IMG/VR virus record: IMGVR_UViG_3300005613_000008
Span: 32,001 to 96,000 of that record
Strand: one strand, 5' to 3'
From: a virus
Length of the DNA: 64,000 bases
Numbering within the stretch: position 1 is the first letter of the stretch; each line of letters opens with the position of its first letter. A model generated the notes under the pieces. The model saw nothing but the letters and a program-made list of their open reading frames with translations. It ran no database searches and had not been told where the DNA came from. Shown here piece by piece: positions 28,614 through 64,000 of this stretch. The position numbers were made by a program, and so were the translations under genes.

Positions 28614-28633
28614 GAGAATAAAAAAAACAAACT

Positions 28634-28641
28634 ACTATTTA
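28634..28641 (+). promoter_or_regulatory. Putative late promoter ACTATTTA
   Basis: Intergenic, about 19 nt before ATG 28660. Confidence 0.7.
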
Positions 28642-28659
28642 AGTGAGAGAGGAAAATAA

Positions 28660-29691: not shown

Positions 29692-29704
29692 TCGGAGAAC
29701 TTAA

Positions 29705-30745: not shown

Positions 30746-30754
30746 GAGGGCACG

Positions 30755-48929: not shown

Positions 48930-49388
48930 ATGTCTAACAACATGAAAGTCATAATGGAGCGTTGGGATAGATACGTTCTCGAAGAAGCGCCCTTAGAGAC
49001 AGTTGGAGATCTTAGAAAATTAATCAAGACCCACCGAGCTATGGAAGCAGGACTAGAGCTAGGAAAGAAAGCAGCGGAAGCAGTAATAGAGCAGATACCA
49101 GTTGTTAGTAGCATTTTCTCTCTTTGGAAGGGTGTGAAAGATGCTAAAGAAATTATTGGAAAACTGTATGGTGCTGAAGATTCTTTTAAATCAGCAACTG
49201 GACTAGACAAGCTAAACGTTGATGACGAAGTTTCCAAGATTGTTGATGATCCCATCGAGGTTGCTTTTATTAATGATCTTTTAAAAGCAATAGAAAACAT
49301 GGATGATCTATCCCCAATCCCAGACATAAACGCTGAACTTCAGAAATACTTAGCAAATAAATTCAACTCATATCAGGTAAAGAAATGA
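48930..49388 (+). CDS. Hypothetical protein with MK.IME.W..Y..EE leader variant
   Basis: SD AGGAG; MSNNMKVIMERWDRYVLEE. Confidence 0.65.
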   Translation: MSNNMKVIMERWDRYVLEEAPLETVGDLRKLIKTHRAMEAGLELGKKAAEAVIEQIPVVSSIFSLWKGVKDAKEIIGKLYGAEDSFKSATGLDKLNVDDEVSKIVDDPIEVAFINDLLKAIENMDDLSPIPDINAELQKYLANKFNSYQVKK

Positions 49389-49729
49389 TGGAACTTCTAC
49401 TATTCGTCCTTATAGCCTACGGACTAACACAAATTTTAGTCTATAGCGATATGCCTATACTAAAAAAACTACGCCCTCAGAAGGACTCCTACAAGGGCTA
49501 CGGCAAAGTGTTTCACTGCCCTATGTGCATGGGATTTCACGTCGGATGGTTTTTGGTCCTGCTTTCTCCTTGGACCGAACTATTTACGTTTGACACAACA
49601 ATTGTCAATGCTTTTATGCTTGGTTGTCTCTCATCAGCAACATCCTATGTTCTCAACATGGCATTTTCGGATGAAGGAATCATGATAAAGCATAACTACA
49701 AACACGATAACTTTATGGGAGAAGAGTGA
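49385..49729 (+). CDS. Membrane protein, DUF1360-like
   Basis: TM helix, then CPMCMGFHVGW, then further TM segments. Confidence 0.65.
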   Translation: MMELLLFVLIAYGLTQILVYSDMPILKKLRPQKDSYKGYGKVFHCPMCMGFHVGWFLVLLSPWTELFTFDTTIVNAFMLGCLSSATSYVLNMAFSDEGIMIKHNYKHDNFMGEE

Positions 49730-49794
49730 TGAACAACTACCTAATCAGTAAGTGGGGCTTACAGCCCGTTCGTCGTTGCTGTAAAGGCTCCTAG
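49729..49794 (+). CDS. 21-aa micro-ORF MNNYLISKWGLQPVRRCCKGS
   Basis: TGATG coupling to the upstream stop; ends TAG 49792-49794 just before a terminator. Not in the ORF track. Confidence 0.5.
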   Translation: MNNYLISKWGLQPVRRCCKGS

Positions 49795-49799
49795 CTCGC

Positions 49800-49825
49800 G
49801 CGGGTAACGCCCGCTTTTTACTTTT
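49800..49825 (+). terminator. Intrinsic terminator
   Basis: GCGGG-TAACG-CCCGC followed by TTTTTACTTTT. Confidence 0.65.
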
Positions 49826-49839
49826 GAGAGAACATTAAA

Positions 49840-50439
49840 ATGAAACTACTACGAGAATACTACGAACTATGTGAAGGCGGCGTTTGCCAAGACCTTCTTA
49901 CCGAGGACGAGAAGCGCTTTGTCTCCAATGGCGGCATGATGCTTACAGGTAAGCTACAAGAAGCAGATGTTCAGAACGGCAACGGTCGTGTTTATCCTTA
50001 CAAAGTTTTAGCCCGAGAAGTCCAAAACTACAAGAAACTAGTAAAAGAAAACAGGGCACTTGGCGAACTAGACCACCCTGACGATTCAGTTATCAATCTA
50101 AAAAACGCTTCACATATGGTTACAGACATTTGGATGGAAGATAAGGCTGTTATGGGTAAGGTCAAGGTTCTCAACACTCCATCAGGTCAGGTTCTCAAGT
50201 CTCTCGTAGAGTCAGGGGTTAAACTTGGCATCTCTTCTCGTGGTATGGGCTCCGTATCAGAAGGCGCAGGCAAGGTTATAGTCCAAGAAGACTTTCAGCT
50301 TATTTGCTTTGACTTTGTATCGGAGCCATCGACACCAAACGCATTTATGATGCGAGAAGCAAAAGAGTTTAATAATAGAGTATTCACAAAAGCCGACCGA
50401 ATCAACAGGTTATTAAACGAGGTATTAGAAAATGAATAA
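49840..50439 (+). CDS. gp21: Prohead core protease
   Basis: NGNGRVYP, ALGELDHP, GISSRGMGS, FDFVSEPSTPNA. Confidence 0.95.
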   Translation: MKLLREYYELCEGGVCQDLLTEDEKRFVSNGGMMLTGKLQEADVQNGNGRVYPYKVLAREVQNYKKLVKENRALGELDHPDDSVINLKNASHMVTDIWMEDKAVMGKVKVLNTPSGQVLKSLVESGVKLGISSRGMGSVSEGAGKVIVQEDFQLICFDFVSEPSTPNAFMMREAKEFNNRVFTKADRINRLLNEVLENE

Positions 50440-51106
50440 GTCAGATTTAGAAAAAATTCTATTAGAAGAAATAGAAACAGTTATAAACGAAGAAGAACTT
50501 GATGAGCAGAGTTTTCTAAAAAGAGTTGCCTCTGCTTTTAGAGGAAAACGACGTGGAGATCAATTAAGAGCAAAGAGAGCCAAAGCGAGAAGCAGAGGCA
50601 CTTACAATGTGGATGATTCTGGTCAAGCTCCCGCAGACACAAAAACTCCAGAACCAGCAGCAAAAGAAGACTCAGGTAAAACGATATCTTTGACAAAGGA
50701 TATCTTTCCTGATCTGATACCAGATATTCCATCACAAGATCGACATAAGCTAACCAAGTTGGTAAAAAGATTAAAGAGAGATAGAATAATTGGAAAAAAA
50801 ATCTCCAACTCTGAAAGAGAGAGACTAAAAGATGAATATTCTAAGATAGACGTTTATTCAAGCAAGTTAAGAGATGCAATCAAAAATGCAGGTTCAAAAC
50901 GCTCACAACTTGCATCACAGATGTCAAAAACAGTATCAGTTGATGACGTAAAGAATAAAATTCAGAATGCTGCCAGTATTGTAGATATAGATCCACAGAT
51001 AGTGAAATACATACTCAACGATATTGAAGATAATACAACCTTGGTAGAAAATATAGTATTAGCAATAATAAAAGAAAATCTAAATGGAAATAAGGTGGTA
51101 TTGTGA
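50432..51106 (+). CDS. Hypothetical AT-rich protein with LLEEI leader
   Basis: MNKSDLEKILLEEIE followed by a basic region. Confidence 0.65.
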   Translation: MNKSDLEKILLEEIETVINEEELDEQSFLKRVASAFRGKRRGDQLRAKRAKARSRGTYNVDDSGQAPADTKTPEPAAKEDSGKTISLTKDIFPDLIPDIPSQDRHKLTKLVKRLKRDRIIGKKISNSERERLKDEYSKIDVYSSKLRDAIKNAGSKRSQLASQMSKTVSVDDVKNKIQNAASIVDIDPQIVKYILNDIEDNTTLVENIVLAIIKENLNGNKVVL

Positions 51107-51534
51107 ATAAAGCACAATTAAAGAAGCTAATCAAACCAGTCGTAAAAGAATGCATCCAAGAAGTCCTCATAGAAGAAGGTCTTCTCACGGAAGTTGTATC
51201 TCAAGTAACTGCTGGTTTATCGAAGAAACCAATTGTTGAGAATAAACCAAAGAAAACAAAAGATAACCTATTTAATGAAGACTTGCAGATGAAACGCAAG
51301 ACCCAAGAGGTGAACCAGAAACTACAGGAGCATCGTAAGAAACTCCTAGATTCAATTGGTAAAGAAGCTTATAATGGCGTAGATCTCTTTGAAGGCACAG
51401 AACCCATTAGAGAATCAGGAACACCCGGAGCCTCACATAGACCAAATGTTCTAGGCGACGATCCAAATGATGCTGGTGTAGATATCAGTTCACTAATGGG
51501 AAATGCAAGTAAAGTCTGGCAAGCACTTAAATAG
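51103..51534 (+). CDS. Hypothetical head-region protein with leader-like N-terminus
   Basis: GTG start; MNKAQLKKLIKPVVKECIQEVLIEE. Confidence 0.7.
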   Translation: MNKAQLKKLIKPVVKECIQEVLIEEGLLTEVVSQVTAGLSKKPIVENKPKKTKDNLFNEDLQMKRKTQEVNQKLQEHRKKLLDSIGKEAYNGVDLFEGTEPIRESGTPGASHRPNVLGDDPNDAGVDISSLMGNASKVWQALK

Positions 51535-51542
51535 GAATAACA

Positions 51543-51791
51543 ATGAGCAGAAGAAAGGGCGCTAACGTTAAAGTAACAGCAAAAGAGTGCCGTGGTAATC
51601 ACGAGAAGATGATCCGAAAGTTCATCAAAAAGTGTAAAAAAGAAAAAGTTATTGAACAGATTAGAGATAGAAGATATTTTAAGAAACCTTCAGATGTAAA
51701 GAGACATGCAAAACAGGCTGCTATTCGCAGACAAAAGCGTGACGTTGCAAAGCAAAAGGCAAAAGATGCTGCCCGCGAAAGAAATAGTTAA
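51543..51791 (+). CDS. rpsU: Ribosomal protein bS21 homologue
   Basis: EKMIRKFIKKCKKEKVIEQIRDRRYFKKPSDVKRHAKQAAIRR matches the bS21 core (RRFK..V.K.G...E...R..Y.KPS..R). Confidence 0.85.
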   Translation: MSRRKGANVKVTAKECRGNHEKMIRKFIKKCKKEKVIEQIRDRRYFKKPSDVKRHAKQAAIRRQKRDVAKQKAKDAARERNS

Positions 51792-51792
51792 G

Positions 51793-51800
51793 ACTATTTA
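51793..51800 (+). promoter_or_regulatory. Putative late promoter ACTATTTA
   Basis: Intergenic, about 30 nt before ATG 51830. Confidence 0.72.
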
Positions 51801-51829
51801 TTCTGACTATGTAAAAACGGAGGTTTCTT

Positions 51830-52273
51830 ATGTCTAACTTTATCAAATCCTATCAAGCGAATGTAGGACTTAACCATGTGCCTGCCTATCAGGTTTCAGG
51901 ACAGCCATTCGCCACAGGGTCCATAACTGCTAATCCAGTCACAGGAGATGTAGTAAAGGTTGAGTTTCCATATGTTACTAGATGGGTTAAAATTGTAGCC
52001 ATTACTGGTAGTGCGAATACTCACTTGAGAGTAGGCTTTTCTGAAAATGGTGTTAAAGGCGACAACTACTTTAGATACCTTGCAGGAAACAACTTTAATC
52101 ACGAAGGTGGTCCATCTGCTCCGCTTGAATTAAAAGTGAGTGAACTTTACTTCTTGGGTGATAATGGAGCAACAGTTGAATTTGATGTTGTGGCTGGCTT
52201 AACTTCTATCCCTAGTTCTCGCACCACAACCGATAGTGGTCCAAGCTGGTCAGGCTCTGCTGGGGTGGGTTGA
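51830..52273 (+). CDS. Putative virion (head decoration-type) protein
   Basis: Own ACTATTTA motif and GGAGG SD; beta-rich, first gene of the fibre cluster. Confidence 0.55.
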   Translation: MSNFIKSYQANVGLNHVPAYQVSGQPFATGSITANPVTGDVVKVEFPYVTRWVKIVAITGSANTHLRVGFSENGVKGDNYFRYLAGNNFNHEGGPSAPLELKVSELYFLGDNGATVEFDVVAGLTSIPSSRTTTDSGPSWSGSAGVG

Positions 52274-52276
52274 TAG

Positions 52277-52924
52277 ATGGCTCAGTTTGGATGGGCATAT
52301 GTAAATTGTTCTAGTTCTGGAGGTACCGCAAATCATGCAGGACCAATCCAGTCTATTCAGTTTTTAACATCTTCCACAGACACAAGCGGGTCATCTAACT
52401 TTCTGTATCTAACCTCCAGCAACACTGTTTATCTTTCTGGAACTTTGCAAGTTGTAGGAACAATTACAGCAAGTTCTTTTGTTGTTGATCAAACAGATAT
52501 TATTTCTGGTTCTACCATTTTTGGCAACTCTACTGATGATACTCACCAATTTACTGGTTCTGTTTATATTGGTGCTTCAGCAAGTGCTCCTACTTTTCAA
52601 GTAGATCCGGTAAACTCTCAAACAATCACACAGGGCTTGAGAGTAAATTATAGACAAATTACTTCAGCAGGAACCTCTTCTACTATCGACTACATTCTTG
52701 GCTTTGCCGGGGCAGGGGCTATAGAGTTTAGAATCCACTCTGCTTCTGTTGCAGGTGAAGGTGCTTTAGTATTGGTAAAGGATGAATTATCTTCTCGCGC
52801 TGGCGCAATTACCCTATCGGCATCTTCAGGTGAAACTATTGATGGTAATTCATTTTATGAAATCACAGGCTCATCTCCAGCAATCAGCCTTTATTCCAAT
52901 GGGACAAGCTGGTTCGTATTCTAG
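52277..52924 (+). CDS. Fibre/decoration protein with T4 gp9/10-like C-terminal domain
   Basis: Ser/Thr-rich; ends VKDE...ITLSASSGETIDG...ISLYSNGTSWFVF. Confidence 0.65.
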   Translation: MAQFGWAYVNCSSSGGTANHAGPIQSIQFLTSSTDTSGSSNFLYLTSSNTVYLSGTLQVVGTITASSFVVDQTDIISGSTIFGNSTDDTHQFTGSVYIGASASAPTFQVDPVNSQTITQGLRVNYRQITSAGTSSTIDYILGFAGAGAIEFRIHSASVAGEGALVLVKDELSSRAGAITLSASSGETIDGNSFYEITGSSPAISLYSNGTSWFVF

Positions 52925-52942
52925 TAATGGAGAAGGCTGTAG

Positions 52943-53926
52943 ATGGCGAAAAATCACTTAACAGGCAATGTCCAGGCACCAGCCTACTTTGGTCCATTAG
53001 GTAACCAACCAGTAGCAAATATTATCTCTGGTGCATTTCACGGAGATGGAACGAACGTAACTAACGTTGCAAGAGTTACGGCTAACGATATTAACGATTA
53101 TGTTGTTACGCTAGGAAATCAGCCACAGAGTTTGGTCGGAGAACCAAACTTAAGATTTAATGGCTCTCGCCTCTATGTTAATGCACCAGTAACAGCTTCT
53201 GCATTACATTTAACTGCACTTCCTGTTGGAATAGCGACAACAGCCTCTTATCTTGCCCTTGATGAAAATAACAATGTTATTCTTACATCTTCTGTTATAG
53301 ATACGGGAGCAGAAGGTCAAGGACCAATTAATTCAATCCAGATTCATACCGGTTCTAGTGGAATTTCTGGCTCTGCCAACTTTATCTATGATCCCTCAAC
53401 AAATGTAGTAGAGCTATCTGGCAATCTAATAATTTCCGGCAATATTACAGCACACACATTTGATATCATACACACAGATATAATCGAGATCGATTCTTCT
53501 GGATCTACAAGATTCGGTGATAGTAATGATGATGTTCACATTCGCACTGGCTCTTTGTCTATCATGTCTTCATCAGCAGAACAATTCAAAGTAGACATAA
53601 TAAATAAAGTTACCTCTATCAACACAGGTGTTTCTTTCAATAGAATCTCAACCTCTATAGATTACAATGTTAAGAAATCAAATTACATTATAGGAGTAGA
53701 TAGCACAAGCAATCCTGTAACAATCACCTTGCCTGATGCAAGTACTTTATCTAGCGGTCACACATTTGTCGTAAAAGACGAAGGTGGCGCTGTTTCCAGC
53801 AATGCCATTACGATTTCGGCGTCTGGATCTCAACAAATCGACAGTGTAAATTCGATTGTTTTGGAAGTGCCTTATTCATCTATTCAGCTTTATTGTAACG
53901 GCACATCAAAGTTCTTTGTTTTCTAA
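52943..53926 (+). CDS. Fibre/decoration protein, paralogous C-terminal domain
   Basis: Ends TITLPDA...FVVKDEGG...ITISASGSQQID...LYCNGTSKFFVF. Confidence 0.68.
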   Translation: MAKNHLTGNVQAPAYFGPLGNQPVANIISGAFHGDGTNVTNVARVTANDINDYVVTLGNQPQSLVGEPNLRFNGSRLYVNAPVTASALHLTALPVGIATTASYLALDENNNVILTSSVIDTGAEGQGPINSIQIHTGSSGISGSANFIYDPSTNVVELSGNLIISGNITAHTFDIIHTDIIEIDSSGSTRFGDSNDDVHIRTGSLSIMSSSAEQFKVDIINKVTSINTGVSFNRISTSIDYNVKKSNYIIGVDSTSNPVTITLPDASTLSSGHTFVVKDEGGAVSSNAITISASGSQQIDSVNSIVLEVPYSSIQLYCNGTSKFFVF

Positions 53927-53947
53927 ATCCTGTTTATGATCATTGTA

Positions 53948-53955
53948 TCTATTTA
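53948..53955 (+). promoter_or_regulatory. Late promoter variant TCTATTTA
   Basis: Intergenic, before the hairpin and ATG 54016. Confidence 0.6.
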
Positions 53956-53962
53956 TAATCAA

Positions 53963-53988
53963 ATAAGCAAGCCTATGCGTTTGTTTAT
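53963..53988 (+). promoter_or_regulatory. 5' UTR RNA stem-loop of the long fibre gene
   Basis: ATAAGCAAGC-CTATGC-GTTTGTTTAT: 10-bp stem with two G-U pairs, between the promoter motif and the SD. Confidence 0.5.
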
Positions 53989-54015
53989 CTTAATGACATT
54001 ATAGGAGGATTTTAT

Positions 54016-55923
54016 ATGTCTAATGGTTTTGTTCCCGCAAAGGGTACTCAGGATCCACTCTGGAAGGGTGGTGGTCTTGAGATTTCAGGTTCCGGCGTAC
54101 TTCGTGTCACCGGTTCCGGTGCTGGTGGTGAAGATATTCACGCTGATTTCAAGGAACACCTTGGTATCTCTGCTGTTGAGTCTCGCGCTACTGTTCTAGA
54201 AGGCGATGTTGTCTCTATCGACACCCGCATCACTGACGAAGAGTCTGCTCGCCTCGCTGGTGACAACTCTCTAGAAGCTGCTCTATCTTCTGAGATTTCT
54301 GCAACAAACGACGATGTTGATTCACTCGACGTTCGCGTCTCAGCCCTTGATTCCGAGCAGGATGCAGATCAGGTTTCTATCGACGCTGCAATTTCTGGTG
54401 AGGTTTCTGCCCGCATTGCTGGTGATGACTCTCTCCAGACACGTCTATCTGCCGAAGAGTCCCGTGCTGGCTCTGTCGAAGTTAGCCTTCAGGGTTCACT
54501 AGACGCCCGTGTTTCTGCTCTCGATTCTGAACAGGATGCAGATCAGGTTTCTATCGACGCTGCAATTTCTGGTGAGGTTTCTGCTCGTGTCGCTGGCGAT
54601 GGTTCCCTAGAGACCCGTCTAAGCGATGAAGAGGTTGCTCGCGCTTCTGTCGATGCTGTCGCATCTGCTGCCCTATCTTCTGAGGCTTCAGAGCGTCTCG
54701 CTGGCGATGGCTCTCTTGAGACCAAGATGGATGCTGCCGATGGTTCACTCACAACTCGCATCTCTGGCGAAGAGTCTGTTCGTCTCGCTGATGATCTTTC
54801 TCTCCAGACCCGCCTAAGCACTGAAGAGTCTACTCGCACCGCCGAGATGGCTTCTAACGATACAGCACATACCTCTCTAGAGACTAAGATTTCTACTGAT
54901 GTTTCTGCTGCTAACGCTTCTGTCGATCTTCGCGTTAGTAATGAAGAAGATGCGCGCGCTGCTGCCGATGCTTCACTTACCACTCGCGTAAGCGATGAAG
55001 AGGTTGCTCGCGCTTCTGTCGATGCTATCGCATCTGCTGCTCTCTCTTCTGAAGAGTCTGCTCGCGTTGCTGGCGATGCTTCACTTACCACCCGTGTTGG
55101 CAATGAAGAGAGTGTCCGTGCTTCTGCTGACGCTTCTATCGTTGCTATGCACGAAGCTGACGAGGTTTCTCTCAACGCTCGTTTGAGCACTGCCGAGTCT
55201 CAGGAAGCTGCTGATGTCGCTTCTCTCGAAGTTGTTGATGGTTCTCTAGAGACCCGTCTAAGCGAAGAGGAATCTACTCGCACTTCCGAAATGGCTTCTA
55301 ATGATCTAGCACACAGCACAATGCAGTCTATAGTTCAGTCTGTTGATGGTTCTCTAGAGACCCGTCTAAGTGATGAAGAGGATGCACGCACTTCTGGTGA
55401 TAATTCTCTCACCACTCGCATCTCTGGTGAAGAGTCTGTTCGTCTCGCTGACGACCTCTCACTCCAGACACGTCTAAGCACAGAAGAGTCGCGTGCCTCT
55501 GCTGCTGAAGGTTCTCTTGAGACCCGTCTAAGTGAAGAAGAATCTCTTGCTGTTGCAGAGTTCGCTTCAGTCGATGCCGCAATCTCTTCTGAAGAGTCTG
55601 CTCGCATCTCTGGCGATGCTTCTGTCTTGGCTGCCATCGTTGCTGGTTTCAAGGACATTCAGGTTCTCGGCACCAACACAACCCTAGATAACACTTACAC
55701 CCACGTTGTTGCTGGTGCTGATGGTCTAACCTTCACACTTCCAGCCACTCCCGGTGCTGATGAAATCTACTTCATCAAGAACTTCGATGGTGTTGATGCT
55801 CAGGTTACAATCGCCGGTAACGGTAACAACATTGATGGTCAGTCCAGCATCTCTCTAGATGTTCCAAACGCTGCTGTCAAGGTTGTTTACGATAGCGCTA
55901 CTGACGAGTGGTACATCTTCTGA
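54016..55923 (+). CDS. Long coiled-coil fibre protein (18-residue repeats) with gp9/10-like tip domain
   Basis: Recurrent SL.TR.S.EE..R..xD unit; C-terminal TFTLPA...IKNFDG..VTIAGNGNNIDG...VVYD....WYIF; SD AGGAGG; MCP-like codon usage. Confidence 0.75.
   Translation: MSNGFVPAKGTQDPLWKGGGLEISGSGVLRVTGSGAGGEDIHADFKEHLGISAVESRATVLEGDVVSIDTRITDEESARLAGDNSLEAALSSEISATNDDVDSLDVRVSALDSEQDADQVSIDAAISGEVSARIAGDDSLQTRLSAEESRAGSVEVSLQGSLDARVSALDSEQDADQVSIDAAISGEVSARVAGDGSLETRLSDEEVARASVDAVASAALSSEASERLAGDGSLETKMDAADGSLTTRISGEESVRLADDLSLQTRLSTEESTRTAEMASNDTAHTSLETKISTDVSAANASVDLRVSNEEDARAAADASLTTRVSDEEVARASVDAIASAALSSEESARVAGDASLTTRVGNEESVRASADASIVAMHEADEVSLNARLSTAESQEAADVASLEVVDGSLETRLSEEESTRTSEMASNDLAHSTMQSIVQSVDGSLETRLSDEEDARTSGDNSLTTRISGEESVRLADDLSLQTRLSTEESRASAAEGSLETRLSEEESLAVAEFASVDAAISSEESARISGDASVLAAIVAGFKDIQVLGTNTTLDNTYTHVVAGADGLTFTLPATPGADEIYFIKNFDGVDAQVTIAGNGNNIDGQSSISLDVPNAAVKVVYDSATDEWYIF
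54358..55530 (+). repeat. Interleaved near-identical DNA repeats in the fibre gene
   Basis: 53-nt exact repeat 54358-54410/54532-54584; 38-nt exact repeat 54620-54657/54989-55026; about 77-nt imperfect repeat 54754-54830/55414-55490; several ggttc..t.gagacccgtctaag copies. Confidence 0.9.
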
Positions 55924-55944
55924 TAACCCTGTAGTCTAAATCTT

Positions 55945-55980
55945 GGGGGCACCTCTTCGGGGGTGCCCCCATTTCGTTTT
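55945..55980 (+). terminator. Intrinsic terminator with cUUCGg loop
   Basis: GGGGGCACCTC-TTCG-GGGGTGCCCCC followed by ATTTCGTTTT. Confidence 0.9.
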
Positions 55981-56005
55981 GTTAGTTCTTAAATGGATTC
56001 GTGAT

Positions 56006-56013
56006 ACTATTTA
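56006..56013 (+). promoter_or_regulatory. Putative late promoter ACTATTTA
   Basis: After the terminator, about 28 nt before ATG 56041. Confidence 0.72.
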
Positions 56014-56040
56014 CGAGTGCTTGTAGCGGAGAACAAAAGA

Positions 56041-57144
56041 ATGAAAATAAGCAAGAATGTAAAGATCGGAATTACCACCAAGTGTGACGAAAATCTATTT
56101 GGAAATGGGCTCAACCAAAACGTTTGGTTCCTATACAGACTTCTAAGTGGTGCCGGATACGATGTGCATCTAGTGTCGGAATCAAACAAGCATCACGGTA
56201 AGAAGCTGATTACCCAAGACATTCTTCCCTTAACAAAAGAAAATATAAAAGAATACGGCATGATTATGGAGTGCGCTTTTGCTCTTGAAAATGCTACTGC
56301 TGATGCTCTAATAGAATCTGGTGGAGTTCGCATTGGTATTCAGTATGGCAACAGACTCCTAATTGATTTAGAGAACATGCTCTTTAAACCAGATAACGGC
56401 GGTATAGGTAAGAAAGACATTCATGAAATCTGGTGCTCTCCACACTTTGAGTTCTCAATCCCAGCATTGGAGATCTTAGAGAAAACAGAAATGCATGTTT
56501 GCCCCTATGTTTGGAGCCCTGACGTTGTTACTCACACTTACATAAACTTTAAGATCAATCCGTTCTTTAAGCCATCTACAAACATCAATAACATTTCATT
56601 TTTTGAACCTAACCTAAACATTGTAAAGTCTTGTATGATTCCCATGATTGTTGTTGAAGATGTCTACAATAGAAGACCAGAACTTATCAATGACGTTTAT
56701 AACTTTGGTTCACTTAAGCTCGCAAAGCATAAAACCTTCTTATCGATGGTTAACAAACTAAATCTAAAGAAAGACAAAAAGATTTCTTTTGAAGGTCGCT
56801 ACAAGTTTGTTTGGGCTCTTCACAAAGAGTTTGCTGGCACCATTGTTAGCCATCACTGGATGAACGGGCTAAACTATCTTCAGCTTGAGGCAATGTACTT
56901 TGGAACCCCATTCGTCCACAACTCTGAGTTTTTCAAAGACCATGGTTATTATTTCCCTGAATGGGATGCTAAGGAAGGTTCACGTCAATTAGAGCGCGCT
57001 ATTGAAACCCATAAGGGCGTCTACCTAAAAGAGAGAGAAAGAGACAGAGAAAAACTTTGGGAGTTCCATCCAGACAACCCTAAGAACATTGAAGGCTATT
57101 CCGAGCTAATTGAAAATGCTCTTGCAAAGCATTTGAGAAAATAA
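56041..57144 (+). CDS. DUF2827-like protein (putative GT-B glycosyltransferase)
   Basis: KIGIT..LFGNGLNQN, HEIWCSPH, CPYVWSP, FFEPNLNIVKS..IPM, SHHWMNGLNYLQLEAMYFGTPFVHNS...GYYFP; ATG 56041 preferred to track start 56017. Confidence 0.75.
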   Translation: MKISKNVKIGITTKCDENLFGNGLNQNVWFLYRLLSGAGYDVHLVSESNKHHGKKLITQDILPLTKENIKEYGMIMECAFALENATADALIESGGVRIGIQYGNRLLIDLENMLFKPDNGGIGKKDIHEIWCSPHFEFSIPALEILEKTEMHVCPYVWSPDVVTHTYINFKINPFFKPSTNINNISFFEPNLNIVKSCMIPMIVVEDVYNRRPELINDVYNFGSLKLAKHKTFLSMVNKLNLKKDKKISFEGRYKFVWALHKEFAGTIVSHHWMNGLNYLQLEAMYFGTPFVHNSEFFKDHGYYFPEWDAKEGSRQLERAIETHKGVYLKERERDREKLWEFHPDNPKNIEGYSELIENALAKHLRK

Positions 57145-57154
57145 AGAAATAAAA

Positions 57155-57162
57155 ACTACTTA
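57155..57162 (+). promoter_or_regulatory. Late promoter variant ACTACTTA
   Basis: Intergenic, about 23 nt before ATG 57185. Confidence 0.62.
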
Positions 57163-57184
57163 CTACAAAAAATAGAGGTTTTAT

Positions 57185-58309
57185 ATGGCTTATAATGTTA
57201 TTAAGGGAAATATTGAGTTCAGCGGACCAACTCAAGGCACAATTGAGGATATGGTTGATGTTCATAGTGATCAAGTAATCGGTGGAACTAAAACATTCTC
57301 TCAAATGGTCACAGCATCCTCTGGTCTGTCAGCTTCTATTTTTTATGGCGATGGATCAAACCTAGATGGTATCACCTCTGGACCTATTGATACTTACGAT
57401 AACTCTGGTAATAACAGAATTATAACTTCTGTTGATTCTACCACAATCCAAGGCGAAGCGAACCTTACCTTTGACGGCACTTCATTGTCGGTAACTGGAG
57501 ACGTAACTGCTTCTGCTAATGTTTCGGCATCAGCATTCCAAGGTGACGGCAACAGTCTAACAAACATTGGTCCTTCTAGTTTAAACTTAGGTGCAGGATT
57601 GCAAGATCTTGCTGGAAATTTAGAACTAAACTTAGATACAGCCTCTGGTCTTCAAATAGCAGCAGGTGGTTTAAAAGTATATCTAAGTACGTTATCTAAC
57701 GCTGATCCACTTGCTGATGGTGATTTGTTTATTGCAGACCAGAGTGGAAATAAAAAAGCAACAGCATTACAGCTATACAACTACGTTGATGGCAAATTAT
57801 CAATCCCGATCGTAGCTGGTGCAAATACTCAGATTCAATTTAATGATGCTGGGGATCTCGGCGCAAGCACCAATCTTGCTTTCAATTCTGCTACAAATAT
57901 TTTTTCTACTGTTACTGCAAGTTTTACTGGAGATGTAGAGATTGGTGGGAATCTAGAAATAAGTAAAGAATTAACAGTTACAGGTTCTACCAGAACAGCC
58001 GCAAGGTTTCATTCGGTTTCTGTTCAGACAGCTAGTTACTCAGCAACAAGTGGCGATGAAATAATTCTTATGAATAGTTCCTTGGCAACAACTGCAAGCC
58101 TGCCTCCAATTTCTAGCACTCTTGTTGGACTTACCTTGACAGTTAAAAGAACTGGAACCGGCGAGGTACAAGTTTCTGGAAGTAATGGTATAGATACTCA
58201 GCCAACAATAAATCTAACACCACAGGGTGCTTTTGTCAAGATTATAGCCGCAGATTTCGGAGGCTCTAGTTATGGTTGGGCTATTATAGCTAAAAGCGGC
58301 TCTTTCTAA
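57185..58309 (+). CDS. Fibre/decoration protein, fourth paralogue
   Basis: DQVIGGTKTF fibre motif, V/T-A-S repeats, C-terminal TASLPP..GLTLTVKRTG..GIDT..L..QGAFVKI domain. Confidence 0.65.
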   Translation: MAYNVIKGNIEFSGPTQGTIEDMVDVHSDQVIGGTKTFSQMVTASSGLSASIFYGDGSNLDGITSGPIDTYDNSGNNRIITSVDSTTIQGEANLTFDGTSLSVTGDVTASANVSASAFQGDGNSLTNIGPSSLNLGAGLQDLAGNLELNLDTASGLQIAAGGLKVYLSTLSNADPLADGDLFIADQSGNKKATALQLYNYVDGKLSIPIVAGANTQIQFNDAGDLGASTNLAFNSATNIFSTVTASFTGDVEIGGNLEISKELTVTGSTRTAARFHSVSVQTASYSATSGDEIILMNSSLATTASLPPISSTLVGLTLTVKRTGTGEVQVSGSNGIDTQPTINLTPQGAFVKIIAADFGGSSYGWAIIAKSGSF

Positions 58310-58316
58310 TGCTTTT

Positions 58317-58324
58317 ACTATTTA
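58317..58324 (+). promoter_or_regulatory. Putative late promoter ACTATTTA
   Basis: Intergenic, upstream of the scaffold-MCP operon. Confidence 0.75.
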
Positions 58325-58371
58325 TTGTTACTAGTTAGAATGAAAAACTAATGTTATAGGAGTTTTTGTTA

Positions 58372-59610
58372 ATGTCTTCATTATTAGAGCAAGCAATCGT
58401 AGACGCCAAAGCGTTGAAGGAAGCCGCAATGAAAAATGCGGAAGCAACCATTATTGACAAGTATTCAGAAGAGGTCAAATCAACCTTGAACCAGCTTCTT
58501 GAGCAGGATGAGTTGGAAGCACTACTTGGTGGCACTGACGAGACCACCGCAGATGCAGAAGCAACTATGGATGAAGAAGTCGAGAAAGATGAGATTGTTG
58601 AAGGCGTTCCAGATGCTTTTACCGAAGACATTTCTGAACTTGGCGGTGTAAACGAAGGCGATGAGACAGAAGTTACTGTTGATTTTGCCGAACTTGCCGA
58701 GGCTCTAAAAGAACTTCGCGAAGGCGTCGAAGAAGAGACACTCAACGAAGAAGGCTACGATTGTATCAAGGATATGATGGCCGAAGGTATGTCCCGTAGA
58801 GAAGCAATTGCCGAGTGTAAGAGAATGGGCAGACTTGACGAGGCAGAAGAAGAAGATCCAATGGACGAAGAAGTCGAACTTGACGAAGAGTCTATTATGG
58901 AGATGGTTGCTGCTATGCTTTCCGGCGATTCTGCTGCCGCAGAAGAGGAAGCAGACGCCGACCAGATGCAGATGGCTGGTCTCGAAGAAGCCGAAGAGGA
59001 AGAAGAAGTTATGGAAGAAGGTGAAGATGAAGATCTTTACGAAGAACTTTCTGATTCTATGCTCGATGCAATCGTAGAAAAACTTACTGTAGATATGGGT
59101 GCTACGCTCTCTGGTTGGGCAGGTCGTTCTGACGACGATATGAAACACCAGATGGAGCTAGAGATGGCACATCGCCGCAGCACCGAAGTTGCAGAAGAAC
59201 TCGAAGCACTCAAGAAGGCTCAAGAAGAGCTAGTCTTCGAGAACAAGAAACTAAAAGAAACACTTTCTAACTACAAACAAGTAGTTAACTCACTTAAGGA
59301 GAATGTGCAGGATGTAAATCTTAGTAATGCACGTCTTCTTTACACCAACCGCACGCTAAGAAATACCTCCCTGAATGAGCGACAAAAAGAAAGAATTGTC
59401 GAAGCGATTTCTAAAGCTGGTTCGGTTGAGGAAGCAAAGACAATCCACGAGACACTTCAAAGCACAGTGGCGTCCACTCCCAAGAGAGGACCACAATCAC
59501 TAAGCGAAGCTATCACCCGTCCAACTTCCATTATCCGTGCATCCCGTAAGGAAGAACCCAAAGTGGATCCCTTCCAGGCGAGAATGCGTAAACTAGCAGG
59601 TTTAGAATAA
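58372..59610 (+). CDS. gp22: Prohead core scaffold protein
   Basis: Highly acidic helical protein (MSSLLEQAIVDAKALKEAA...LSNARLLYTN...RMRKLAGL) directly upstream of the MCP; SD AGGAG. Confidence 0.8.
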   Translation: MSSLLEQAIVDAKALKEAAMKNAEATIIDKYSEEVKSTLNQLLEQDELEALLGGTDETTADAEATMDEEVEKDEIVEGVPDAFTEDISELGGVNEGDETEVTVDFAELAEALKELREGVEEETLNEEGYDCIKDMMAEGMSRREAIAECKRMGRLDEAEEEDPMDEEVELDEESIMEMVAAMLSGDSAAAEEEADADQMQMAGLEEAEEEEEVMEEGEDEDLYEELSDSMLDAIVEKLTVDMGATLSGWAGRSDDDMKHQMELEMAHRRSTEVAEELEALKKAQEELVFENKKLKETLSNYKQVVNSLKENVQDVNLSNARLLYTNRTLRNTSLNERQKERIVEAISKAGSVEEAKTIHETLQSTVASTPKRGPQSLSEAITRPTSIIRASRKEEPKVDPFQARMRKLAGLE

Positions 59611-59636
59611 CAAAATAAAAAGGAGGTTTATTCATT

Positions 59637-61442
59637 ATGTCTAGTATTGTTGAAAGACTCACCGAGGGTGTAGTCAACCGTGATATGCGTGCCGAGTCCC
59701 ACGCTCTTCTATCCAAGTGGAAGAAAACAGGTCTTCTTGAGGGTCTAGAGGGTGAGCGTCAGGCTAACTCCATGGCTCGTCTACTTGAGAACCAAGCCAA
59801 GGAGCTACTCCGTGAGGCTAACTCTATGTCTTCTGGTGATGTCGAAGGCTTCGCTGCCGTCGCATTCCCCATTGTTCGTCGCGTTTTCGCTGGTCTTATC
59901 GCCAACGATCTCGTCAGCGTTCAGCCCATGAGCCTACCTTCTGGTCTCATCTTCTTCCTCGATTTCACTTTCTCTGGTGATCTCGGTGATGGTAATACTC
60001 AGGATCGTCGCTTCGGTAACGTTGCTGATAAGTCCATCTACGGTACCGATCAGGTTGGTTCACAGGTTACCGGTGGTGTTGATCTCGTTGATACTCGCGG
60101 TGGTGACCTTTCTGGTCCTCGTTCTTCTGCTCGCGGCTACGCCTACGCTAGCCCAAGTGGCTCCGCTATCCTTAGCTCCTCTGCTACAGCATTCACCTCT
60201 TCAGGTTGGCAGATTGGCGCTGAGACAGCAGCACAGCGTAAGGCTGTACAGTTCGACCCAGATGTCATGCAGTTCTCTGGTTCTAGCACTGCTCATTACA
60301 TCCTAGAATTGCAGCTTCCAAAGGCAGCCACACAATGGTCTTCTGGTGACTGGGCTTATCTAGACTACAACAACCTCTCAGCGGTTGATGTCATGGACCT
60401 AACCGATCTAGACGATATCACTGACGGTGCTAGCGGAGGTTACACCTCTTCTAACACTTCACGTCTACGTCGTCTAACTCAGGTGACCGATACTCTTGTT
60501 AAGCTTTACTTCTTGACAACTGTTGACACTACTGCTACTGCTGATGGTACTGGTGGCAGCGCGAACCTAAACGTAGAATTCCCAATTGTTGATCAGTTCC
60601 AAGCTGGTGCCAACACTTCACTTGGCGCGGTTCGTGGCGATACTCCTTGGGGTCTTGAAGGCAACGCTGACATCCCTGAGATCGACATCAAGGTCGATTC
60701 CATCGCTGTCACCGCTCAGACCAAGAAGCTCAAGGCTAAGTGGACCCCCGAACTCGGTCAGGATCTCAACGCCTACCACAACCTCGATGCCGAGGTTGAG
60801 CTTACCAGCCTTCTCTCCGAGCAGATTGCTCTTGAGATCGACCGCGAGATCCTTGCTGACCTCGTTAACGGTGCTACTGCTGGTACCCGCTACTGGTCAC
60901 GCGCTCCCGGTCTCTTCGTTGATTCCAACGGTAACGAGATTGGTGCCAGCGCTAAGGCTCCCGACTTCACTGGTACTGTCAGTGAGTGGTACGAGACCCT
61001 CGTTGAGACCATCAACGATGTCTCTGCTCAGATCCACCGTAAGACTCTTCGTGGTGGTGCTAACTTCGTCGTCTGCGGACCTGAAGTTGCCAACATCCTT
61101 GAGTTCACCGCTGGCTTCCGCGCAAGCGTCACTCACACCGACGAGAAGGGCTCCATCGGCGCTCTCAAGGTTGGTTCACTCAGCAAGAAGTTTGATGTCA
61201 TTGTTGACCCCTACTTCCTACGCAACGTCATCCTAGTTGGTCGTCGCGGTAGCTCCTTCCTCGAAAGCGGCTACGTCTACGCTCCCTACGTCCCGCTACA
61301 GACTACACCCACAATCTTCGGACCAGAAGACTTCGTACCGCGTAAGGGCGTTATGACCCGTTACGCCAAGAAGATGGTTCGTCCAGATATGTACGGTCTA
61401 GTCGTCGTTCGTGGTCTCCTAGGTGAGTCTGGCGGCTCCTGA
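59637..61442 (+). CDS. gp23: Major capsid protein (T4 gp23 family) with a large insertion
   Basis: FPIVRRVFAGLIANDLVSVQPMSLPSGLIF, KLKAKWTPELGQDL, LEIDREI, GYVYAPYVPL, PRKGVMTRY; SD AAGGAGG. Confidence 0.97.
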   Translation: MSSIVERLTEGVVNRDMRAESHALLSKWKKTGLLEGLEGERQANSMARLLENQAKELLREANSMSSGDVEGFAAVAFPIVRRVFAGLIANDLVSVQPMSLPSGLIFFLDFTFSGDLGDGNTQDRRFGNVADKSIYGTDQVGSQVTGGVDLVDTRGGDLSGPRSSARGYAYASPSGSAILSSSATAFTSSGWQIGAETAAQRKAVQFDPDVMQFSGSSTAHYILELQLPKAATQWSSGDWAYLDYNNLSAVDVMDLTDLDDITDGASGGYTSSNTSRLRRLTQVTDTLVKLYFLTTVDTTATADGTGGSANLNVEFPIVDQFQAGANTSLGAVRGDTPWGLEGNADIPEIDIKVDSIAVTAQTKKLKAKWTPELGQDLNAYHNLDAEVELTSLLSEQIALEIDREILADLVNGATAGTRYWSRAPGLFVDSNGNEIGASAKAPDFTGTVSEWYETLVETINDVSAQIHRKTLRGGANFVVCGPEVANILEFTAGFRASVTHTDEKGSIGALKVGSLSKKFDVIVDPYFLRNVILVGRRGSSFLESGYVYAPYVPLQTTPTIFGPEDFVPRKGVMTRYAKKMVRPDMYGLVVVRGLLGESGGS

Positions 61443-61464
61443 TAGCTAGCCAACTCTAAAACCT

Positions 61465-61496
61465 AAGCCCCCTGCTTCGGCAGGGGGTTTTTGTTT
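61465..61496 (+). terminator. Intrinsic terminator after the MCP, cUUCGg loop
   Basis: AAGCCCCCTGC-TTCG-GCAGGGGGTTT followed by TTGTTT. Confidence 0.93.
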
Positions 61497-61504
61497 GTGC
61501 GCCC

Positions 61505-61512
61505 ACTATTTA
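61505..61512 (+). promoter_or_regulatory. Putative late promoter ACTATTTA
   Basis: Immediately after the MCP terminator, about 23 nt before ATG 61535. Confidence 0.75.
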
Positions 61513-61534
61513 CTACGATTAGGAGGCTCTATGA

Positions 61535-62812
61535 ATGCCCACAAACTTACAACCACTTTCCGAGACTAGCGCAGTAATTCTTTCATCAACTGGCGATCCG
61601 TCAGCAGTAGCCGCAGCAGTTCCGTTTGGAATCTATAATGATTCAAACTATTTTCTCACAGGAGCAGCAAAGCAGGTAGATTTTGTCTACAAAAGACTTG
61701 GTGGCGATGTAGTAGACATTGAGCTTACAAACGCAAATGTTTATGCTGCTTATGAAGAAGCAGTCTTAGAATACTCCTACATCCTCAACATGCACCAAGG
61801 CAAGAATGTTCTTGGTGATGCTCTTGGGAAAACAACAGGAACCTTCGATCATAACGGTGATACCCTAACAGGACCAGAAGGAGCGAACCTACAATACACA
61901 AAGATTACCCTTTCTTATGCTAATAAAGTAGGTGACGCTGTTGCTACTATGGCTGGTGTTGGCGGTTCTACTCCAATCTACTCTGCTTCTTTCACAACAG
62001 TAAAAAACCAACAGGATTATGATCTTCAATCGATTATCTCCGCAGCTTCCGACACAGGTTTAGACGATGCTGGCAATGCTGTGCCTTATGCTGGAAAAGT
62101 TGGAGATTCCAGAGTAATCATCGATAAGGTTTTTTATCGCTCTCCAATCGCAATGTGGCGCTTCTATGGCTACTACGGAGGCATGGGTGTCGTCGGCAAC
62201 TACTCTACCTACGGGCAGTATGCTGATGATTCTACTTTTGAGATCGTACCAACTTGGCAAAATAAACTTCAAGCCATTATGTATGAAGACTCACTTTACA
62301 CAAGAACCTCTCATTATTCATTTGAGATCATTGATAACAAGCTAAGGCTTTATCCAACTCCACGCGGAGAAGATAACTTCGCTGGCTATCTTGATCGTAT
62401 TTGGGTTCGTTTCCGCATTGTTGATAACTCTTGGGGTGAGGACGGAGATACAAACACAGGTGTAAATGGTGTCAACAACATCAACACACTTCCATTTGAT
62501 AACATCCCTTATGAAAACATCAACTCTATGGGTAAGCAATGGATTCGCAACTATGCTCTTGCTCTATGTAAAGAGATGTTAGGGCAGATTCGCGGTAAGT
62601 TCCAAACTGTCCCAATCCCCGGTGAGTCTGTTACTCTCAACTATTCTTCCCTTCTATCCGAGGCTCAAAAAGAAAAAGAAGACCTACGACAGAAGCTAGC
62701 AGATATGTTGAAAGAAATGGAATACCCAGAACTCGCAAAGAAAGATCAAGAGAAGGTTACGGCAGCAGAAGAAGTTCTTCGTCGCTCTCCACTACCTATC
62801 TTTGTAGGATAA
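61535..62812 (+). CDS. gp13: Neck protein (gp13-like head-tail adaptor)
   Basis: KRLGGDVVDIELT, WIRNYALALCKEMLGQIRGKF..IPG.SVTLN..LLSEA. Confidence 0.85.
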   Translation: MPTNLQPLSETSAVILSSTGDPSAVAAAVPFGIYNDSNYFLTGAAKQVDFVYKRLGGDVVDIELTNANVYAAYEEAVLEYSYILNMHQGKNVLGDALGKTTGTFDHNGDTLTGPEGANLQYTKITLSYANKVGDAVATMAGVGGSTPIYSASFTTVKNQQDYDLQSIISAASDTGLDDAGNAVPYAGKVGDSRVIIDKVFYRSPIAMWRFYGYYGGMGVVGNYSTYGQYADDSTFEIVPTWQNKLQAIMYEDSLYTRTSHYSFEIIDNKLRLYPTPRGEDNFAGYLDRIWVRFRIVDNSWGEDGDTNTGVNGVNNINTLPFDNIPYENINSMGKQWIRNYALALCKEMLGQIRGKFQTVPIPGESVTLNYSSLLSEAQKEKEDLRQKLADMLKEMEYPELAKKDQEKVTAAEEVLRRSPLPIFVG

Positions 62813-62816
62813 CTAA

Positions 62817-63308
62817 ATGTCAGATAACGAATGGTCTAGACCAGCATCACCTCCACCGCCACTCTTTCTTGGCAAGAAAGAACGTGATCTCGTTAAGCAA
62901 GTCAATGACGAACTTGTAGAAAAAGTAATCGGACAACAGATTCTCTATTACCCTATTGATCTCGAAACAACAAACTTTCATGAGCTTTATGGCGAGGCTA
63001 TAGAAAAAACTTATCTACCACCAATAAGAGTTTATGCTCTTGTTAAGTTCGATCAAGATGATACTTCTTATCTAGACTCAGTTGGTATTGATAATGTATC
63101 TGAGATTACGATTCATTTTCATAAACGCAGACTTACAGAAGACCAAAATGTTTTTGTAAGAGAAGGCGACTTTGTTCTCTATGGAGATCTCTATTATGAA
63201 ATTATGGCTCTTTCTTCGCAAAGAAAATTGTTTGGTCAAGTAAACCACGCATTTGAAATTTCTGCTAAATGTAAGAGAGCACGCAAGGGACTATTCGATG
63301 CTACCTGA
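62817..63308 (+). CDS. gp14: Neck / head completion protein (gp14-like)
   Basis: IGQQILYYPI...LYGEAIEK..PPIRV...GDFVLYGDLYYEI. Confidence 0.8.
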   Translation: MSDNEWSRPASPPPPLFLGKKERDLVKQVNDELVEKVIGQQILYYPIDLETTNFHELYGEAIEKTYLPPIRVYALVKFDQDDTSYLDSVGIDNVSEITIHFHKRRLTEDQNVFVREGDFVLYGDLYYEIMALSSQRKLFGQVNHAFEISAKCKRARKGLFDAT

Positions 63309-64000
63309 TAATTTTGACTTCGCACAACTTCCTGAAGATAAAAAAGACTTTACCCTTAAAGAAGTAGGGATGCTTGCTTCTCGCATAGAGGACATTGACT
63401 ACGCAATTGTTTCTTGGATTAAAGAAGATTTAGATTTGTCAACTCTAACGAATGAAGGCTACAAGCGTGTACCTGTTTTGTGGCAAACACCAGAGAGAGC
63501 ATTCCAAATAAAGAATAACAAAGACCTTCGAGCGCCTGATGATCATAGTTCAGGTGCCATTACACTTCCTGTGATCACTATTGAAAGAACTGGTATCACC
63601 AAAGATCCGACAAGAAAGGGAGGTTATCAGGCACAGATCTTTTCAAATCAACGGAATGGCAGAGTAGGTCGTATGACTATCGCCAAGCGTATCAAGCAAG
63701 ATAAGACTCGCAACTTTGCGGTTGTTGGAAACACTCGCACAAACACTTCAGGAGATAGGCAAAAGTTCTTTCCGAGAGTAAACAAGAAGGTTGTTATTGA
63801 AACCCTTTCAATCCCTATTCCTATCTATGTCAATCTCGACTATAAGATTGTTGTCAAGACAGAATACCAACAGCAAATGAATGATCTTACCCAGCCATTC
63901 ATGACGAGAACAGGACAAATAAATTCATTTGTAATGCGTAGAAATGGTCATCTTTATGAAGCCTTTATTGACCAAGGTTTCAACCAGTCCAACAATGTCG
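63298..64000 (+). CDS. gp15: Tail terminator / sheath stabiliser (gp15-like), partial at window end
   Basis: Not in the ORF track. Open from ATG 63298: VPVLWQTPER, ITLPVITIERTG, PIPIYVNLDYKIVVKTEYQQQMNDL. Confidence 0.7.
   Translation, partial: MLPDNFDFAQLPEDKKDFTLKEVGMLASRIEDIDYAIVSWIKEDLDLSTLTNEGYKRVPVLWQTPERAFQIKNNKDLRAPDDHSSGAITLPVITIERTGITKDPTRKGGYQAQIFSNQRNGRVGRMTIAKRIKQDKTRNFAVVGNTRTNTSGDRQKFFPRVNKKVVIETLSIPIPIYVNLDYKIVVKTEYQQQMNDLTQPFMTRTGQINSFVMRRNGHLYEAFIDQGFNQSNNV

Follow-up and report, generated by a model that had tools for sequence, protein, structure and literature searches.

What does a gene of the uncharacterised family DUF2827 do in the middle of the fibre genes of a marine T4-like phage? 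This question is raised by a cluster in the window, i.e., the whole stretch of 64,000 nucleotides that was analysed (bases 32001-96000 of the 127,323-bp IMG/VR contig IMGVR_UViG_3300005613_000008; CheckV completeness about 70%). Positions refer to the window and genes are named by their first position. The initial annotation had read the gene 56041-57144 as a DUF2827 glycosyltransferase-like gene, lying between the Ser/Thr-rich fibre genes 54016 and 57185 and upstream of the genes for scaffold and major capsid protein. Family and position were confirmed, the scaffold being assigned by position and composition only. Judging from the gene associations described below, the DUF2827 enzyme probably puts sugars on fibrous surface proteins. 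On balance, we favour the explanation that an active DUF2827 glycosyltransferase adds sugar to the neighbouring fibres late in infection. We know of no characterised member of this family.

The 367-aa protein matched PF10933 at profile positions 2-362 of 362 (E 2.5e-70; 237.6 bits with a cut-off of 25), and the genome search agreed. In the Pfam scan (E up to 0.01) DUF2827 was the only match; Glycos_transf_1 (PF00534) or a related family of the GT1 clan was not found. No relative in the PDB was detected by sequence, neither with the single protein nor with a profile, and no match in PHROGs was obtained for the enzyme or for most of the fibres. Clustering at 50% identity (E up to 1e-3) gave at least 1,458 clusters, so that the size of the family far exceeds what public annotation implies.

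The fold was examined with an AlphaFold2 model based on 44 homologues (pLDDT 92.8, pTM 0.89). Two Rossmann-like beta/alpha/beta domains with an interdomain cleft were present, as is characteristic of GT-B enzymes. The best matches in Foldseek were GT4 enzymes. By VIA-align the model was superposed on BshA with Z 24.3 (rmsd 4.0 Å, 323 aligned residues), followed by MshA, TarM, PimA and the glycogen and sucrose-phosphate synthases. SdgB reached Z 20.5 and the T4 alpha-glucosyltransferase (AGT) Z 20.6 over 316 residues. Altogether, Z was at least 8 for 806 of the 998 re-aligned chains, and those listed were all GT-B enzymes. Thus, the GT-B fold expected in the initial annotation was obtained in a confident model with a conserved donor-site glutamate.

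A likeness of the C-terminal LEAMYFGTPFVHNS to the donor-binding motif of GT4 enzymes had also been noted. In the hhalign comparison LEAMYFGTPFVHNS indeed falls on LLEAMSAGLPWIS of the phage's own GT4 enzymes, with E 0.0011 and a probability of only 21%. According to this alignment, E283 would be the second Glu of the EX7E motif. The model-based, whole-length match to GT4 enzymes is consistent with this low-probability alignment. E283 is conserved at 90% or more, as is the residue eight positions upstream, Asn275. Across 116 diverse relatives with only 24-30% identity to the phage protein, K196, N278 and H293 were invariant, and N22, G23, R253, N294 and others were conserved at 90% or more. 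As judged from the alignment, this is the pattern of an enzyme pocket rather than that of a scaffold protein.

The flanking fibres were correctly described as very rich in Ser and Thr. In the four fibre open reading frames (ORFs) these residues account for 22-28%, compared with a contig median of 11.7%, giving ranks 1, 3, 4 and 5 of 135 ORFs. Their description as four paralogues held in part. By sequence comparison the paralogy is real (52277 and 52943, E 6e-34; 52943 and 57185, E 1e-7; 52277 and 54016, E 2e-4 over the last ~100 residues), but it is carried mainly by a C-terminal domain of about 100 residues. The small protein 51830 was rejected as a further fibre paralogue (E 0.15). Homologues of it were found in close relatives and also 8-9 kb from DUF2827 in the class C loci L016-L021.

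For 52943, PHROG matches to a tail fibre proximal subunit (8.3e-7) and to a baseplate protein (1.2e-4) were obtained. In the monomer AlphaFold2 model the C-terminal domain had a pLDDT of about 90, while residues 1-231 were below 50 and are unreliable. This domain was superposed by VIA-align on residues 62-175 of CBA120 TSP4 (Z 12.9, rmsd 1.8 Å, 94 residues), a baseplate chain of Klebsiella phage KP1 (Z 11.9, 31% identity), an Acinetobacter tailspike (Z 11.9) and the capsid spike of Pa223 (Z 9.5). The four highest Z values were 12.9, 12.2, 11.9 and 11.9; from rank 9 on, Z was below 4 and the chains were unrelated. None of the fibres matched Pfam T4_gp9_10_N. The link to this family comes from Atlas look-alike clusters only, in which 12-50% of the members carry it; those of 57185 were all viral, some of them with T4_gp9_10_N. 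Owing to the common fold of the docking domain, the fibres can be regarded as virion appendages that share one docking module. Going by the model, the domain resembles baseplate and tailspike adaptors as well as a capsid spike, and a site at the head, collar or baseplate is not specifically favoured. Hence, the earlier suggestion that the phage glycosylates its own head or collar fibres is supported by the fibre linkage, in so far as association can indicate a target, but the location at head or collar is not.

The fibre 54016 contains an 18-residue repeat with the core L-x-T-R-x4-E-S, which amounts to about 25 copies, and the identity autocorrelation peaked at lags of 18, 36 and 54. Sequence related to the locus was present in marine, sponge, seawater and sediment metagenome runs. 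The comparison with metagenomic contigs informs on presence and linkage only. In the region 54236-55700, marine, sponge and seawater contigs skip or replace blocks of 45-433 bases; therefore, the number of repeats in 54016 varies between environmental strains. The order fibre, terminator, DUF2827, fibre was bridged by contigs from three runs of two studies. The idea that only the enzyme gene is conserved in the metagenomic strains (share about 0.25) was dropped, the fibre 57185 being at least as conserved there. In the close relatives L003-L008 an additional gene for a Ser/Thr-rich protein of 250 aa (cluster c19) follows the homologue of 57185, and some have an additional fibre of 717 aa (c86). 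Both are absent from the phage of the window, as compared at 58309-58366. Thus, the fibre content varies around a constant enzyme gene.

The initial annotation had further described a strong terminator ahead of the enzyme gene and a motif of its own like that of the structural genes. Both were located (Table 1), the motif being ACTATTTA, and a GGAG lies about 11 nt ahead of the ATG 56041. In the window 14 copies of ACTATTTA were counted, all on the plus strand, against 2.7 expected; none of 100 shuffles reached 14. They include those at 7755, 28634, 32983, 43362, 51793, 56006, 58317 and 61505. The whole contig contains 22 copies on the plus and one on the minus strand, of which about 14 are located within 60 nt upstream of a start, usually at 16-60 nt. 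The T4 late-promoter motif TATAAATA occurs in the contig with only two copies (+) and five copies (-). By analogy with the T4 late promoter, ACTATTTA may be this phage's candidate late promoter element, distinct from TATAAATA. Within 49000-64000 the terminator behind 54016 is equalled in strength only by the one that follows the major capsid gene, and it suggests high expression of the repeat fibre.

Table 1 Location of the enzyme gene, its surrounding fibre genes and signals, and further genes of the phage
Feature	Position	Strand	Remarks
DUF2827 (PF10933) GT-B glycosyltransferase (predicted), 367 aa	56041-57144	+	Pfam, AlphaFold2 model, structural alignment
ACTATTTA motif of the glycosyltransferase gene	56006-56013	+	35 nt ahead of ATG 56041
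Intrinsic terminator after the repeat-fibre gene	55944-55971	+	12-bp stem, 9 G-C pairs, TTCG loop, T-rich tail
Fibre paralogue 1, 215 aa	52277-52924	+	28% Ser+Thr, rank 1 of 135 ORFs
Fibre paralogue 2, 327 aa	52943-53926	+	residues 232-327: predicted docking domain, gp10/tailspike-adaptor-like
Repeat fibre, 635 aa	54016-55923	+	15% Ser; 18-residue repeats, then the common C-terminal domain
Fibre paralogue 4, 374 aa	57185-58309	+	23% Ser+Thr; E 1e-7 to 52943
Small protein opening the cluster, 147 aa	51830-52273	+	no Pfam or PHROG match
ACTATTTA motif, late-type promoter-like, first cluster gene	51793-51800	+	exact copy, 30 nt ahead of start 51830
ACTATTTA motif ahead of the scaffold-like gene	58317-58324	+	exact copy
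Scaffold-like acidic protein	58366-59610	+	position and composition only
Gp23-type major capsid protein	59637-61442	+	Pfam Gp23 E 2.9e-72; PHROG major head protein 8.6e-71
Large terminase	start 43958	+	Pfam/PHROG scans
Portal	start 45547	+	Pfam/PHROG scans
Prohead protease	start 49840	+	two small proteins between it and the cluster 51830-58309
Glycan-synthesis block, about ten genes, upstream of the window	C1:19572-29307 (= L077:7572-17307)		domain scan

The surroundings of DUF2827 in other viruses were examined with 72 IMG/VR loci, which were dereplicated at 60% identity to 25 groups. Ser/Thr-rich proteins of at least 200 aa were counted by their distance in genes from DUF2827. They made up 17%, 17% and 12% of the genes at distances 1, 2 and 3, compared with 2-5% at distances of 6 or more. 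A neighbour of this kind within three genes was found for 11 of the 25 groups. Repeat proteins similar to 54016 adjoined DUF2827 or lay within about four genes of it in six architectures (classes A, D, F and H and the loci L032 and L044). In a quick tree of the family, fibre-linked classes appeared in all major branches, and the bacterial sequences were nested among the viral ones. Most telling are the loci L054/L059, which share homologues of the window genes 25746-32056 and of the RuvC-like gene 32394. Here, two DUF2827 genes (28% identical to the window copy) lie inside a 16-kb run of Ser/Thr-rich genes, which is inserted between the homologues of 30755-32056 and of 32394 and hence in a module other than the head module of the window. 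Therefore, enzyme and fibres stayed together across relocation. In three further loci the viral DUF2827 domain is contained in a far longer ORF, of 688 aa in L045/L046 and of 2236 aa in L069.

Comparable associations are known from bacteria. DUF2827 genes were reported to be 'constantly associated' with trimeric autotransporter adhesins (TAAs) in Burkholderia, Veillonellales and Pasteurellales, and glycosylation was suggested (January 2026 preprint, bioRxiv 10.64898/2026.01.22.700529). The statement of the initial annotation that no role has been described for DUF2827 is thereby outdated, since TAA glycosyltransferases are proposed in this preprint. In our scan of bacterial genomes with the viral DUF2827 alignment as query no match was found. 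Using a Paraburkholderia member as query, eight Burkholderiales loci were obtained, and six of these eight contained a YadA-type TAA within 10 kb of DUF2827. These TAAs carry ESPR, YadA_head, YadA_stalk and YadA_anchor domains, with a Ser+Thr content of 27-51%. Two or three DUF2827 genes stand in tandem in these loci. Culturable strains with DUF2827 genes beside the adhesin are Ramlibacter albus (L078) and Ralstonia psammae (L085). Thus, DUF2827 is paired in two unrelated settings with long, repeat-built, Ser/Thr-rich trimeric surface fibres, and the linkage to fibre or adhesin genes presumed in the initial annotation was found for phages and bacteria.

The fibres of the two settings were also compared with each other. 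BLAST of the phage fibres against the bacterial TAAs gave a single weak match, which was not significant (E 0.002). In the TAA next to DUF2827 in Ramlibacter albus (L078:3868-9546) a 21-residue stalk repeat was observed with the same core L-x-T-R-x4-E-S as in 54016. At least two copies of this pattern, which was chosen post hoc, were present only in the L078 TAA and in 54016-like proteins among 93 bacterial and 1,536 viral neighbour proteins. As the core was defined after both sequences had been seen, the apparent similarity is a lead only.

Further glycosyltransferases are encoded by the same phage. The glycan-synthesis block contains a glutamine-synthetase-like gene, three GT4 genes (Glycos_transf_1, PF00534), Galactosyl_T and Caps_synth/Gly_transf_sug, and in addition a methyltransferase, an NAD-dependent epimerase/dehydratase and GlmS (GATase+SIS). 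One gene of 212 aa was left out of the domain scan of this block. A ACTATTTA motif is located upstream of it at C1:16055. From its content it follows that the phage plausibly makes sugar precursors and builds an oligosaccharide. The block lies 64 kb upstream of the DUF2827 locus, and the relatives likewise keep their GT4 genes far from their DUF2827. The two loci may cooperate.

Direct connections of DUF2827 with other glycosyltransferases were found elsewhere. In class F loci two DUF2827 genes adjoin a protein with GT2, RXYLT1_C and GT34 domains. Single polypeptides fuse DUF2827 to GT2, GT11, GT31, GT32, GT41, Fringe, Nucleotid_trans, an FkbM methyltransferase or a SET domain. Among them are the giant proteins P0057, P0059, P0169 and P0136, which combine DUF2827 with as many as five further glycosyltransferase domains, with GT41, or with SET and FkbM methyltransferase. 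DUF2827 was also detected in the giant-virus contigs L067, L068, L072 and L073, and the cultured Pyramimonas orientalis virus 01B has a homologue (TM 0.87, 26% identity).

From these results the following course of events is proposed. The product of 56041-57144 would be a nucleotide-sugar-dependent glycosyltransferase with GT-B fold, similar to GT4 enzymes, so that the anomeric configuration is probably retained. Its gene would be expressed late, along with the structural genes, from the ACTATTTA promoter ahead of it. The enzyme may then act in the cytoplasm and transfer sugar onto Ser/Thr side chains of the surrounding fibre proteins, i.e., by O-linkage, before or during their trimerisation and docking on the virion. 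The likeliest targets would be the fibre 54016 with its 18-residue repeats and its paralogues 52277, 52943 and 57185. The five other glycosyltransferases, which belong to the glycan block, could attach more sugars, and this block would also supply the methyltransferase and the precursor enzymes (GlmS, epimerase/dehydratase).

Several observations weigh against modification of the neighbouring fibres. For 14 of the 25 viral groups no Ser/Thr-rich neighbour was found within three genes. In classes B and C, DUF2827 adjoins HNH endonuclease, PhoH, aminotransferase and cytidylyltransferase-like genes, and in the large class G endolysin genes, although 54016-like and 51830-like genes do occur 5-9 kb from DUF2827 in class C. 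A high Ser/Thr content is common in phage fibres in general, and gene order is conserved in structural modules; the linkage may therefore partly reflect inheritance rather than function. With Asn275 in place of the first Glu, the EX7E motif has only one of its two glutamates, and the alignment of the donor motif is of low probability. In addition, the fusions to other glycosyltransferases fit the extension of a glycan on any acceptor as well as initiation on protein. An active enzyme of a virion-glycan pathway with another acceptor, extending a glycan begun elsewhere or modifying, e.g., the capsid protein with its long N-terminal extension, would explain the assembly-line-like fusions and the five further glycosyltransferases in the genome. 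The targets in mycobacteriophages are likewise capsid and tail-tube subunits (Freeman et al. 2023, as cited in PMC12619734). We consider this unlikely, because fibre genes surround DUF2827 in four deep branches of the family, even after relocation of the cassette, and because the bacterial homologues adjoin a single obvious fibrous substrate. Equally improbable is a target outside the virion, such as host envelope polysaccharide, LPS, capsule or a small molecule, with an auxiliary metabolic role or one in superinfection exclusion. The closest solved structures (BshA, MshA, TarM) do act on small molecules, lipids and teichoic acid, the neighbours in classes B, C and G could be read in this way, and the separate block with GlmS and epimerase resembles polysaccharide synthesis. 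Against such a role stand the late promoter-like motif of structural genes, the position between fibre genes, the linkage of a cytoplasmic enzyme to adhesins in bacteria, and the finding that neither a membrane segment nor a lipid-carrier enzyme was observed beside the DUF2827 gene.

Glycosylation of the phage DNA against restriction, as by the T4 alpha-glucosyltransferase, is highly improbable in our opinion. The phage is T4-like and AGT is a structural neighbour of the enzyme, but dozens of other GT-B enzymes score at least as well. DNA hypermodification by several glycosyltransferases does exist (Pyle et al. 2024, as cited in PMC12619734). A thymidylate-synthase-family hydroxymethylase (PF00303) was found neither in the 127-kb contig, which is about 70% complete, nor in four relatives, including a 191-kb genome with a CheckV completeness of 100%. 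The lack of a pyrimidine hydroxymethylase argues against DNA glucosylation; activity on DNA had been named in the initial annotation as one of the contrary outcomes, and no substrate pathway for it was found. Moreover, agt and bgt of T4 are early genes, in contrast to the late promoter-like motif and the position in the structural module observed here, and the bacterial homologues adjoin adhesins. Just as remote is the explanation that catalysis was lost and that the protein serves as a fibre-assembly chaperone or adaptor with GT-B fold. The missing first Glu of EX7E would fit, and fibres often need dedicated chaperones encoded next to them. However, K196, R253, N278, E283, H293 and N294 are invariant or nearly so across relatives at 24-30% identity, and both the fusions to active-type glycosyltransferase domains and the tandem paralogues in bacteria fit enzymes.

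Glycosylation of the neighbouring fibres thus remains the reading that we prefer. More tentatively, DUF2827 could be an unrecognised family of protein O-glycosyltransferases for Ser/Thr-rich trimeric fibres, i.e., for bacterial TAAs and for the virion fibres of marine T4-like phages (and giant viruses). The phages would then build an entirely phage-encoded glycan coat on host-recognition or head fibres, using DUF2827, five further glycosyltransferases, a methyltransferase and precursor enzymes. This broader view is possible, but we lean rather less towards it. To our knowledge, mycobacteriophages are the only tailed phages for which glycosylated virions have been demonstrated by experiment; there, immune recognition was altered. 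If our reading is true, virion glycosylation would also occur in marine T4-like phages, which are abundant, and would include the fibres, through which a virion contacts its host or surroundings. In addition, a first functional handle on DUF2827 would be gained, which would bear on bacterial TAAs, known as adhesion and virulence factors. With a single enzyme gene flanked by candidate substrates the system is compact.

Concerning the phage itself, all large genes of the window are on the plus strand. The order is large terminase, portal, prohead protease, two small genes, the fibre/DUF2827 cluster, the scaffold-like gene and the major capsid gene. The last two place the cluster in the head module. 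The stretch between the protease and the scaffold-like gene covers 50432-58309. In T4, gp21 is directly followed by gp22; therefore, the cluster is an insertion at the place where these two are adjacent in T4. No cultured relative of the locus was found by megablast in 50,697 GenBank phage records, and tblastn of the DUF2827 protein and of the fibres 52943 and 54016 against the same records gave no match. Among the proteins of the locus only the capsid protein matched, namely distant T4-like phages of Flavobacterium, Microcystis and Rhodothermus (42-49% identity over about 60% of the length). The capsid protein has 601 aa, and the Gp23 profile covers mainly residues 322-586. A second PHROG major-head match at residues 30-102 indicates a long extra N-terminal or inserted region. 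Further upstream, genes for a RuvC-like resolvase (32394-32933), a GIY-YIG/homing endonuclease (33012-33638) and a primase (33583-34527) come one after the other. They mark the end of a long structural block (1133-32056), which is without PHROG matches.

Compared with known systems, the locus resembles adhesin-dedicated and virion-glycosylation systems, but by sequence it belongs to DUF2827 and to none of those families. Among the closest are the bacterial DUF2827-TAA loci. They share the Pfam family, with 25-30% identity to the Burkholderiales copies, the long, repeat-built, Ser/Thr-rich trimeric fibre as neighbour, and the frequent tandem paralogues. They differ in that the bacterial fibres are secreted outer-membrane adhesins with YadA anchor, for which glycosylation is proposed, whereas those of the phage are virion fibres with a gp10-like docking domain. 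Glycosylation of fibrous adhesins by DUF2827 was already proposed in the bacterial preprint (10.64898/2026.01.22.700529). New are the setting among phage fibres, a pairing that is repeated in different viral lineages and kept after relocation, and the glycan block encoded by the same phage.

With the GT4 enzymes BshA (6n1x), MshA (3c48), PimA (2gej), TarM (4x7r) and SdgB (7vfm) the model has the whole-length two-Rossmann fold in common (Z 20-24 over 310-330 residues), and the Glu of the EAxxxGxP helix is conserved in the DUF2827 protein. In contrast to them, identity is only 10-16%, no Glycos_transf_1 or PDB match is obtained by sequence, and the first Glu of EX7E is Asn. SdgB is a precedent with GT4 fold that glycosylates the Ser-rich (Ser-Asp) repeats of surface adhesins, and structurally it is the closest one among the adhesin-dedicated GT-B enzymes. 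As with SdgB, GtfA/B and HMW1C, the DUF2827 gene adjoins a Ser/Thr-rich fibrous protein, in the phage cluster, in other phage classes and at the bacterial TAAs. The C-terminal domain of the fibres is comparable to the XD adaptor domains of T4 gp10-like proteins and CBA120 TSP4 (Z 12.9), with which the PHROG matches to baseplate and tail-fibre proteins agree. Unlike in the tailspikes, where it belongs to the N-terminal part, it is C-terminal in the fibres and does not match Pfam T4_gp9_10_N.

Giant viruses encode nucleotide-sugar synthesis and several glycosyltransferases, as known for the capsid glycans of chloroviruses and the fibril glycans of mimivirus. Precursor synthesis and several glycosyltransferases are virus-encoded in our phage as well, and DUF2827 is present in giant-virus contigs, but these are viruses of eukaryotes. 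In mycobacteriophages, phage glycosyltransferases encoded beside structural genes decorate virion proteins, as proposed or shown (Freeman et al. 2023, Cell Host Microbe 31:1216, as cited in PMC12619734 and PMC12801897). As far as described in these citing papers, that system concerns siphoviruses of Actinobacteria, the C-termini of capsid and tail-tube subunits and other glycosyltransferase families. Here, it is an uncultured marine T4-like myovirus, with DUF2827 as the candidate enzyme and fibres as the putative acceptors.

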